64,000 bases of DNA from assembly GCF_006345805.1 (NCBI RefSeq), contig NC_042997.1:41602001-41666000 (forward strand), written 5' to 3'. The stretch comes from Octopus sinensis. Lineage: Eukaryota. A program made the position numbers and the translations under genes. Shown here in pieces: positions 52,301 to 55,300 of this stretch; the first letter of the stretch is position 1; the number at the start of each line of letters is the position of its first letter. The notes under the pieces were generated by a model. That model did not search any database. It saw only the letters and a program-made list of their open reading frames with translations, and was not told the DNA's origin.

Positions 52301-55300
52301 GTAATACAAATCTGTTGAATAACCGTTTGGAGCTGGGAGCATCTTGTATACATCGTACGACCCTTTATTCTTATTTTTATAAGAATGCCATATTAGTATG
52401 GCGATAACTAATATTTTCCGGGAACGCTGCCGTTGTTCTCTTTTAGAGAGACTTAGTAATTTTAATATTTCTATTATTGAAAACAAGTGGATGTATTCCA
52501 CCGAAGCTAGGTAAATAAAACCTTTGAACAGAGATTGTCAGAAGCGATACCTACTGGTCTGGCTACGCTGCATTGAAAAGGGGCAATACCCCGAAACGCG
52601 TCTGTAGCTGCCGGCCAAGTAGTGTGGAGCGACTGACCTCCCTTGTTCAAAGGTTATATGGATACAGTTTGTGTATCAAATAGCTAACTTAAGGCGATGG
52701 CCTCATGGAGCTAATAAGCGGACAGCTTTATTCTTATTTTTATAAGAATGCCATATTAGTATGGCGATAACTAATATTTTCCGGGAACGCTGCCGTTGTT
52801 CTCTTTTAGAGAGACTTAGTAATTTTAATATTTCTATTATTGAAAACAAGTGGATGTATTCCACCGAAGCTAGGTAAATAAAACCTTTGAACAGAGATTG
52901 TCAGAAGCGACACCTACTGGTCTGGCTACGCTGCATTGAAAAGGGGCAATACCCCGAAACGCGTCTGTAGCTGCCGGTCAAGTAGTGTGGAGCGACTGAC
53001 CTCCCTTGTTCAAAGGTTATATGGATACAGTTTGTGTATCAAATAGCTAACTTAAGGCGATGACCTCATGGAGCTAATAAGCGGACAGCTTTATTCTTAT
53101 TTTTATAAGAATGCCATATTAGTATGGCGATAACTAATATTTTCCGGGAACGCTGCCGTTGTTCTCTTTTAGAGAGACTTAGTAATTTTAATATTTCTAT
53201 TATATATATATATATATATATATATATATATATATATATATATATATATATATATATATATATATAGTGGTATGATGACACCTTGTTCTCTGAACTTTCC
53301 GGTCCAGAGAACAAGGTGTCATCATACCACTTTTCGCCTCCTTTGTACGGCAACACCTCGAATACTGCTGCCCACTGTGGTCTCCCCATACAAGACAAAA
53401 CATCTCGAGGATTGAATCACCCCAGAGAGTACTCACTAAACGAATTGAAGGCATGGCTGCTCTCGATTATTGGGATCGCCTTAAAGCCTTGAAACTCTAC
53501 TCTCTCCAGCGTCGCCGTGAGCGGTACATAATTTGTACGATGTGGAGCATATACCGCCAACTTTGCCCAAACGACCTGAACATTAGCTTCAAAGTTCATC
53601 CAAGACTGGGACCACGGGCCATACGTCCCCTGCCCAATTCAAGATCACAGCATACATGTACACTACAAGATAATTTCTTTTCCTCAACAGGCCCTGCCCT
53701 ATTTAACATTGTCCCGAGGGAGATCAAAGAGGAAAAGGATCCCATCAACTTTAAACGGAGTCTGGATAGATTCCTTCAAGGAATACCAGTTAAGCCACCC
53801 ATATATATATATATATATATATACACACCTATATTACGTGTGTATCTTTCTGGCAATGTTTGTGCATCTGCTATCGTTCCACATACGAGGTTGCTGCTTT
53901 TTATTTTTTGTCTCCTTATTTAACAGTTCCGCAAAAATGGTGGGTTGAATAAATACTTGACTTATAAAATGCTGGGATCGATTTCTGAGACTAAAACGCC
54001 TATAAGGTGGCACTCCAGCATGACCATGCAAAATAGTAAATCAGGCTCAGGAGTGGCTGTGTGGTAAGTAGCTTGCTTACCAACCACATGGTTTCAGGTT
54101 CAGTCCCACTGCGTGGCACCTTGGGCAAGTGTCTTCTGCTATAGACTCGGGCCGACCAAAGACTTGTGAGTGGATCTGGGAGATGGAAACTGAAAGAAAC
54201 CCGTCGTATGTATGTATATATATATATATATATGCGTGTGTGTGTGTGTGTGTGTGTGTGTGTGTGTGTGTGTGTTTGTGTGTCTGTGCTTGTCCCCCTA
54301 ACATCGCTTGACAACCGATGCTGGTGTGTTTACGTCCCGGTCACTTAGCGGTTCGGCAAAAGAGACCGATAGAATAATTACTAGGCTTACAAAGAATAAG
54401 TCCTGGGGTCGATTTGCTTGACTAAAGGTGGTGCTCCAGCATGGCCGCAGCCAAATGACTGAAACAAGTAAAAGAGTAAAAGAGAGTAAAGTGTAATACT
54501 CAACAACACACACACACACACGCATACACATACACACACTCACTCACACACATATCATAGTGGAAGAGGACGAAAATAAGGTTACGTAGTATCTAAGGTA
54601 TTGTGGATGGCGTGATTCAATAATTTACTTTGTATAACAATGAATAAATACCAGAAGGTTCGGCTTCGTACTTACAAGTAGAACCATCTTCTTCTTATAA
54701 TGTAGCTCACGGTTCTAAAACACCCCTTTCGACATTTTCTGAAAGGAGAAAAATAGGGCATATATTTCATTATATATACATAAGCTTATACACTCATGCA
54801 CACGCACATAGACCTATATATATATATATATATACGACTAGCAGTATCGCCCGGCGTTGCTCGGGTTTGTAAGGAAAATAACTATATAAGCATTTTTAGA
54901 GAGTTACTTCCCTTATATAAACCGAGCAAAAAATGCATTAAAAAAACGAAAAAATGATTGTAATTATTTTTATCATCGTAGACTCGTCGTAGACGTGCGC
55001 TAATACCCAGAAGGGCTCGATATGAATCACGACTATAAGATACCCGCTGTGTGTATGTGGGAGTAGTTAGGAATCTAAATCGGAGGAGACAGACTCTCAC
55101 ACAACTTCAGTTTTATATATAAAGATTTTTGTAGTTATAGAACCTAGCTGTTCTTTCTAGCGTGTAGAATCCCTATAACTGGATTCCTTATGTGCTTAAA
55201 TATGCACTATATCGTGTGACTAATATATAGTCTTTTTGACTAAATTTTTTAGACGTTAGACTACTGGAAATGTAAAATTTAATTAAATGTTTTAATTTTA

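Follow-up and report, generated by a model that had tools for sequence, protein, structure and literature searches.

A likely non-LTR retrozyme with U3-A8 hammerheads fused to the 3' end of a decayed Hydra-clade Penelope-like ORF in Octopus sinensis

Does a tandem repeat that directly follows a Penelope-like endonuclease belong to that element, or is it a mobile element in its own right? The question is raised by a locus in a 64-kb stretch of Octopus sinensis DNA (64,000 nucleotides; the whole stretch analysed is referred to as the window), in which the initial annotation had described a pseudo-LTR with paired U3-A8 hammerheads as a possible generator of circular RNA. Our analysis indicates that the 363-bp repeat is probably a non-LTR retrozyme, a non-coding mobile element, and that position 52363 marks its junction with what is left of a decayed Hydra-clade Penelope-like ORF.

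The 363-bp units and their hammerhead motifs

TRF delineated a plus-strand tandem array with a period of 363 bp and 2.3 copies at 52363-53200 (52363-53203 in the TRF output; 99% matches), in agreement with the near-identical units that had been reported directly 3' of the GIY-YIG frame, itself a piece of a broken gene. TRF and inspection of the sequence yielded two complete plus-strand units, unit 1 at 52363-52725 (41% G+C) and unit 2 at 52726-53088, followed by a partial unit 3 at 53089-53200 (+). Units 1 and 2 differ at three of 363 sites (52548 T/C, 52615 C/T and 52700 G/A) and by no indel. The partial unit is identical in sequence and passes at ∼53200 into (TA)n, stopping where other copies of the family meet such a tract; its end corresponds to a predicted AU-rich hairpin 235 nt 3' of the predicted ribozyme cut site. 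The tract is a (TA)33 microsatellite at 53201-53266 (TRF; no strand assigned) and likely the insertion target. Examination of the array borders for a target-site duplication showed (TA)n on the right and the ORF on the left. The unit encodes no protein, the longest stop-free sense frame around the circle being 51 codons. A second copy of the unit was found neither upstream of the ORF nor anywhere else in the 64-kb window.

Directly after the microsatellite lies a perfect 27-bp foldback (53267-53330), where a frame of 209 codons (53294-53923) begins. This frame gave no Pfam match, and we take it to resemble the tail of a LINE reverse transcriptase. Other repeats in the window are a purine-rich 127-bp tandem repeat at 1-1512 (11.9 copies, 93% matches; TRF) and two extended regions, 18500-30400 and 36900-43800, in which (ATT)n blocks alternate with (TCA)n blocks and short unique sequences lie in between; one of these arrays has a period of 386 bp (TRF).

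As a definition of a retrozyme we required tandemly repeated units of 150-450 bp, two or more of which, in succession, carry a type I hammerhead. Non-LTR retrozymes are described in PMC7229834 (Cervera & de la Pena 2020) as having units of 170-400 nt, a G+C content under 50% and one type I hammerhead per unit, with repeats of 350-390 bp in Mytilus galloprovincialis and of 331/353 nt in axolotl. Here, the two consecutive 363-bp units each contain a type I hammerhead motif. Motif 1 occupies 52567-52608 (+; helix I of 6 bp, helix II of 4 bp, predicted cut after C52602), and the identical motif 2 occupies 52930-52971 (+; predicted cut after C52965). The cores UUGAAAA begin at 52573 and 52936 (in motif 1, U3 is 52573 and A8 is 52578); helix II is GGGG/CCCC with a 5-nt loop, followed by GAAA; and the palindrome ACGCGT is found at 52596-52601 and 52959-52964, with C17 at 52602 and 52965. 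Core, stem II and palindrome were thus located in each full unit, as the initial annotation had stated. Helix I, which it had not mentioned, comprises 6 bp (52567-52572 with 52603-52608) and is extended through an internal loop into a long rod. The motif combines a Watson-Crick 3-8 pair, GAAA, UH and three helices, of which helix III requires a dimer. Both hammerhead loops presumably resemble the tertiary-contact loops of Schistosoma mansoni.

The geometry of the motif, with helix I of 6 bp, helix II of 4 bp and a short palindromic helix III, is that given for the 'canonical' animal hammerhead in PMC4209133, a type that PMC7229834 places in non-LTR retrozymes. The U3-A8 variant of the ribozyme is not new: it is active in vitro and its natural occurrence was reported in 2011 (PMC3088659), and in 2014 it was described in Penelope pseudo-LTRs of S. 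mansoni with ∼1,300 hits (PMC4209133).

A hammerhead descriptor that allows any Watson-Crick 3-8 pair found one compensatory U3-A8 hammerhead per unit, as had been proposed, and matched none of 5000 dinucleotide shuffles of the unit. The Rfam hammerhead models gave no match in the array, either at the gathering score or at E values up to 10, and the weak Rfam matches fall on the neighbouring foldback and (TA)n; the expectation that standard searches would miss the motif therefore holds for Rfam. The exact hammerhead pattern had no match among the metagenome contigs. A second hammerhead-like motif, at 15985-16049 (+), has a C3-G8 pair, a 5-bp helix III and a Hydra-like geometry. It sits in a 475-bp stretch (15804-16278) between two (TA)n tracts, parts of which recur in both orientations near 13293-13650 at ∼80%.

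Cleavage after C17 at 52602 and 52965 would release a monomer of 363 nt (52603-52965, +), the fragment for which excision and circularization had been suggested. Its predicted fold has an energy of -127 kcal/mol (z -7.67; 0 of 100 shuffles), in which both ends pair with each other as helix I. The predicted circular fold reaches -122 kcal/mol, versus -106.7 kcal/mol for the antisense strand, with pair probabilities of 0.94-0.99 for helices I and II and of ∼0 for a monomeric helix III, so that no activity is predicted for one unit on its own. For the dimeric ribozyme in cis the folds give a divided answer: the minimum-energy fold of both 52540-52990 and 52500-53050 is a double hammerhead in which the two units exchange strands and pair through a 6-bp helix III, whereas over the whole array this dimer fold is outcompeted by 8.4 kcal/mol by two local rods without helix III. 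Dimer-dependent cleavage of an array transcript is therefore plausible, perhaps slow, and the ribozyme and circle stand as predictions. The predicted ligation junction is colinear with the genomic tandem, which means that divergent RT-PCR cannot separate a circle from a linear tandem transcript.

The Penelope-like relic, its fusion point and the unit family

Judged by its sequence, the gene upstream of the array is a relic of a Hydra-clade Penelope-like element. A profile of 41 intact Hydra-like ORFs from metagenome loci, 703 positions long, was matched from position 323 to 694 in four pieces separated by three frame changes, and together with the motifs defines a decayed plus-strand ORF at 50712-52362. 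The ORF comprises RT core pieces (50712-51030, +), a thumb/linker part (51285-51563, +) and the GIY-YIG endonuclease (51955-52359, +; profile and motifs); its linker piece contains one in-frame stop, and its last ∼9 profile positions are replaced by the repeat. Profile positions 1-322, where the N-terminal RWK and DKT motifs would fall, gave no match. Region 50015-50711 (+), 3' of a (TA)n tract at 49981-50014, is possibly a heavily decayed 5' part of the element and showed no significant match to the Hydra-like ORF profile in any frame. The endonuclease displays the CxCX5C linker and the CxxC..E..N..CxH motif that PMC8557442 gives for the Hydra clade, and has no CCHH. A single intact ORF with its own 3' hammerhead is not present; the three frame changes, the stop and the replaced 3' end mark the gene as a relic and not a working element.

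The endonuclease has 4169 relatives at E values up to 0.001, and a word-index protein search returned a single match, an Octopus sinensis protein (65%). An (AAT)n-rich linker precedes the endonuclease at 51525-51900. The linker of its closest relative (P0001) is asparagine-rich, and such a linker may be a trait of the family. Elsewhere in the window, the Hydra endonuclease profile has a short match at 16933-17091 (-; E 8e-7), and a second Penelope-like relic, of another clade, lies at 56824-58116 (+) with an RVT_1 piece and a GIY-YIG domain above the Pfam cut-off.

We compared the window over 51962-52770 with contigs of four sequencing runs, of which X1 and X3 are DNA, while X7 and X18 are guessed to be RNA and were used as sequence evidence only. 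The stretch is present in 20 of 24 listed runs, from 10 studies and under 4 organism labels, with no RNA run among those listed. The comparison listed no position at which molecule ends accumulate, a feature that contigs could not reveal. Two contigs that diverge from the window at 52363 (+) fix the fusion point between endonuclease end and repeat, at which the two parts share one C. The first, X7 record 29, follows the window to 52363 with 1 difference in 192 nt and continues with 32 other letters; X18 record 11 does so with 12 differences in 213 nt and continues with 541 other letters. X7 record 29 also shares with the window four letters that are mostly or wholly absent from the DNA runs. 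Its frame stops ten residues past the CxH motif, a distance that is the commonest among relatives (18 of 125, with 9-11 residues in 49 of 125); the window frame runs on for 17 residues and stops inside the unit at 52407. No bridge over 52363 occurs among the contig pieces listed; with 5223 further pieces beyond the listing, the missing bridge is no proof.

The head-to-tail junction 52725/52726 was found in all four runs: in X1, X7 and X18, contigs that differ from the window at 2-21 sites span it, and X3 has a variant joint. Divergent contigs with this junction and with (TA)n ends occur under two organism labels; they reveal copies apart from any ORF and give no copy count. The median ratio of summed contig depth, unit over ORF, was 33 in X1 and 75 in X3, a rough sign and not a copy number, as summed depth cannot rank the parts of the stretch; in X1 and X3 alike the lowest unit bin exceeded the highest ORF bin, and the bin with the ORF/unit junction was the lowest of 30 in both. 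The unit thus likely exists as a family separate from the ORF. Among the loose ends listed, 14 X3 contigs and one X7 contig pass into (TA)n directly after 52477, and further ends fall at 52473 and 52476 in X18. As far as these sequences go, the family ends where the array of the window ends.

Origin of the locus

A course of events that would account for these observations begins with a source copy transcribed as a multimer. The ACGCGU palindrome would allow two hammerheads to swap strands and to release monomers by cuts corresponding to those predicted after 52602 and 52965, and a host ligase, by analogy with other retrozymes (PMC7229834), would close them into a 363-nt circle. An intact Penelope-like RT-endonuclease, most likely of the (TA)n-targeting Hydra clade, would then nick a (TA)n tract and prime within the RNA at the AU-rich hairpin (unit position 52474), not at the ribozyme cut, copying 2.3 turns. 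Here the enzyme most probably used a (TA)n tract that bordered the older Hydra relic on its 3' side; the new 5' end would have been joined at the one shared base, with loss of the last codons and the 3' UTR of the relic. Because copies end 235 nt past the cut, a linear monomer could not yield 2.3 units, which leaves as template a circle, or an uncut multimer, with internal priming. Hydra-clade Penelope elements are suggested as the mobilising partner by the (TA)n target that they share with the unit and by its direct fusion to one of them; this clade is the most likely one from the (TA)n target only, a tract that is common in the window and that octopod Naiad elements are also described as targeting.

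Insertion into an existing relic has to be weighed against fusion of the same retrozyme to the ORF in one event, which we regard as rather unlikely. A Hydra RT would here have been caught copying the retrozyme circle, with (TA)n priming inside the circle, 2.3 turns of synthesis and a jump to Hydra RNA at the single shared base, and the chimera would have been inserted into (TA)n. Both parts indeed lie on the same strand, their junction is a few codons from the ORF end with one-base homology, (TA)n flanks the whole block (49981-50014 and 53201-53266), and nothing of the native ORF end is left in the window. However, decay has gone much further in the ORF than in the units, with at least three frame changes and a stop against three substitutions and no indel. 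The near-identical ORF end in X7 record 29, moreover, has a native end and may be the same locus without the retrozyme, and region 50015-50711, having no profile match, is only a possible member of the element. The far greater damage to the ORF and the near-identical ORF end that lacks the repeat favour the later insertion.

We consider it improbable that the unit is instead a structured satellite or SINE-like repeat, spread by duplication at the DNA level, whose hammerhead is now an inactive relic. In line with such a reading, motifs of this kind commonly show low or no activity in vitro (including bioRxiv 10.64898/2026.07.22.740005, in which eight of nine predicted Xenopus retrozyme dimers did not cleave in vitro). 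For an Anolis element, ribozyme mutants left insertion unaffected and no reads ended at the cut site (PMC11167929). Against it stand the variation within the unit and the fixed (TA)n end. Among the 40 best-supported of 172 differences, none affects the 42-nt ribozyme motif, and five fall in the unit; four of these lie in predicted helices with pairing kept, and the fifth is unpaired. Partners 52525/52649, U-A in the window, are C and G as the majority letters of both DNA runs. When the differences were placed at random, such a pattern arose in 0.05-0.1% of 200,000 trials, the variants being unphased and the fold being that of the window's copy. The core also recurs in a contig of independent origin, X18 record 14, which over 52476-52588 departs from the window at a single site, by deduction 52548. 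The pair-preserving variation of the rod suggests that the structure of the unit is under selection; in the opposite direction, one X7 contig has lost the palindrome base 52597. A circle-specific allele pair, C at 52911 together with C at 52615, was weighed as a read-level test for circles and abandoned, since C at 52615 makes up about one quarter of the X3 depth and DNA copies can therefore carry the pair.

We give little credence to the initial annotation's view of the unit as the pseudo-LTR or 3' UTR of a Hydra subfamily, duplicated locally, as no copy of the unit lies upstream of the ORF, the ORF's own end is replaced at 52363, where two relatives diverge, and the unit family exists apart from the ORF. 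The unit does lie directly 3' of the endonuclease, with the frame stopping inside it; Hydra elements have a 3' hammerhead and insert at (TA)n (PMC8557442), and descent of retrozymes from pseudo-LTRs is argued in bioRxiv 10.64898/2026.07.22.740005. Native 3' ends of Hydra-like elements nevertheless look different. In 77 Hydra-like loci, from the best 80 of 457 stretches, neither a tandem unit of at least 100 bp nor a match to the 363-bp unit was found. The endonuclease end motif was seen in 73 of the 77 and a hammerhead behind the ORF in 47; helix III has 3-5 bp in all 47 and a short palindrome in none. Where (TA)n was seen (18 loci) it starts 33-112 nt past the cut, compared with 235 nt here, and the array contains no Hydra-type hammerhead near its (TA)n end. 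The 3-8 pair is C3-G8 in 45 of the native hammerheads, U3-A8 in one (candidate at ∼1764-1815 of locus L018) and G3-C8 in one (candidate at ∼2598-2636 of L055); given the single U3-A8 case, the core alone cannot separate a retrozyme from a Hydra hammerhead. In a supplement table of PMC8557442, 25 of 25 Hydra families have C3-G8.

Relation to known systems and implications

The retrozyme that we favour resembles the animal non-LTR retrozymes of PMC7229834 in being tandem and non-coding, with one type I hammerhead per unit and a self-paired predicted circle. With the axolotl retrozyme of the same paper it would share dimer-dependent cleavage, predicted here from the folds. It differs from them in its U3-A8 core, its fixed (TA)n end and its direct fusion to a Penelope-like ORF. 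The Cercyon PLE hammerheads of S. mansoni (PMC4209133) have in common with the array U3-A8 covariation, the tie to Penelope, a palindromic helix III and predicted action as dimers. They are, however, minimal, with a short helix I, a long helix II and an extra base before helix II, and mostly single, whereas the hammerhead of the array is tandem and has the canonical geometry.

The relic in turn shows the CxCX5C and CxxC/CxH motifs and the (TA)n association of Hydra-clade PLEs, including Hydra-1_Obim (Craig et al. 2021, PMC8557442), but its ORF is broken and its own 3' end is missing. The Hydra-1_Obim hammerhead tabulated in that paper has C3-G8 and other helices, and the repeat of the array is not the terminal repeat of Hydra-1_Obim. 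For Poseidon PAc of Anolis (PMC11167929), the RT likewise starts inside the RNA at a stem-loop and not at the hammerhead cut, and targets are AT-rich; PAc is autonomous, belongs to another clade and was tested in vitro, while internal priming in the array is deduced from the ends of copies. Our survey of the literature, with subscription papers outside its scope, found among the entries listed no report of a cephalopod or octopus retrozyme and none of a PLE-retrozyme chimera, although some supplements may contain examples.

Arguments about which autonomous element mobilises animal retrozymes still draw on their co-occurrence and on likeness of sequence (PMC7229834; bioRxiv 10.64898/2026.07.22.740005). 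The unit family offers several handles on this question: its copies end at a fixed place within the unit, they can be longer than one unit, their (TA)n target is also that of a named Penelope clade, and the present copy is fused to an ORF of that clade. Were the locus a Penelope RT in the act of copying a retrozyme circle, it would directly and physically document mobilisation of animal retrozymes by the Hydra clade of Penelope elements and, if true, would bring to light a cephalopod family of very high abundance that standard hammerhead searches miss, with U3-A8 in its core and with target and start site defined. An entire retrozyme family, apparently an abundant one, can escape both Rfam and descriptors built on C3-G8, and molluscs may therefore have more repeats that make circular RNA than have been counted.
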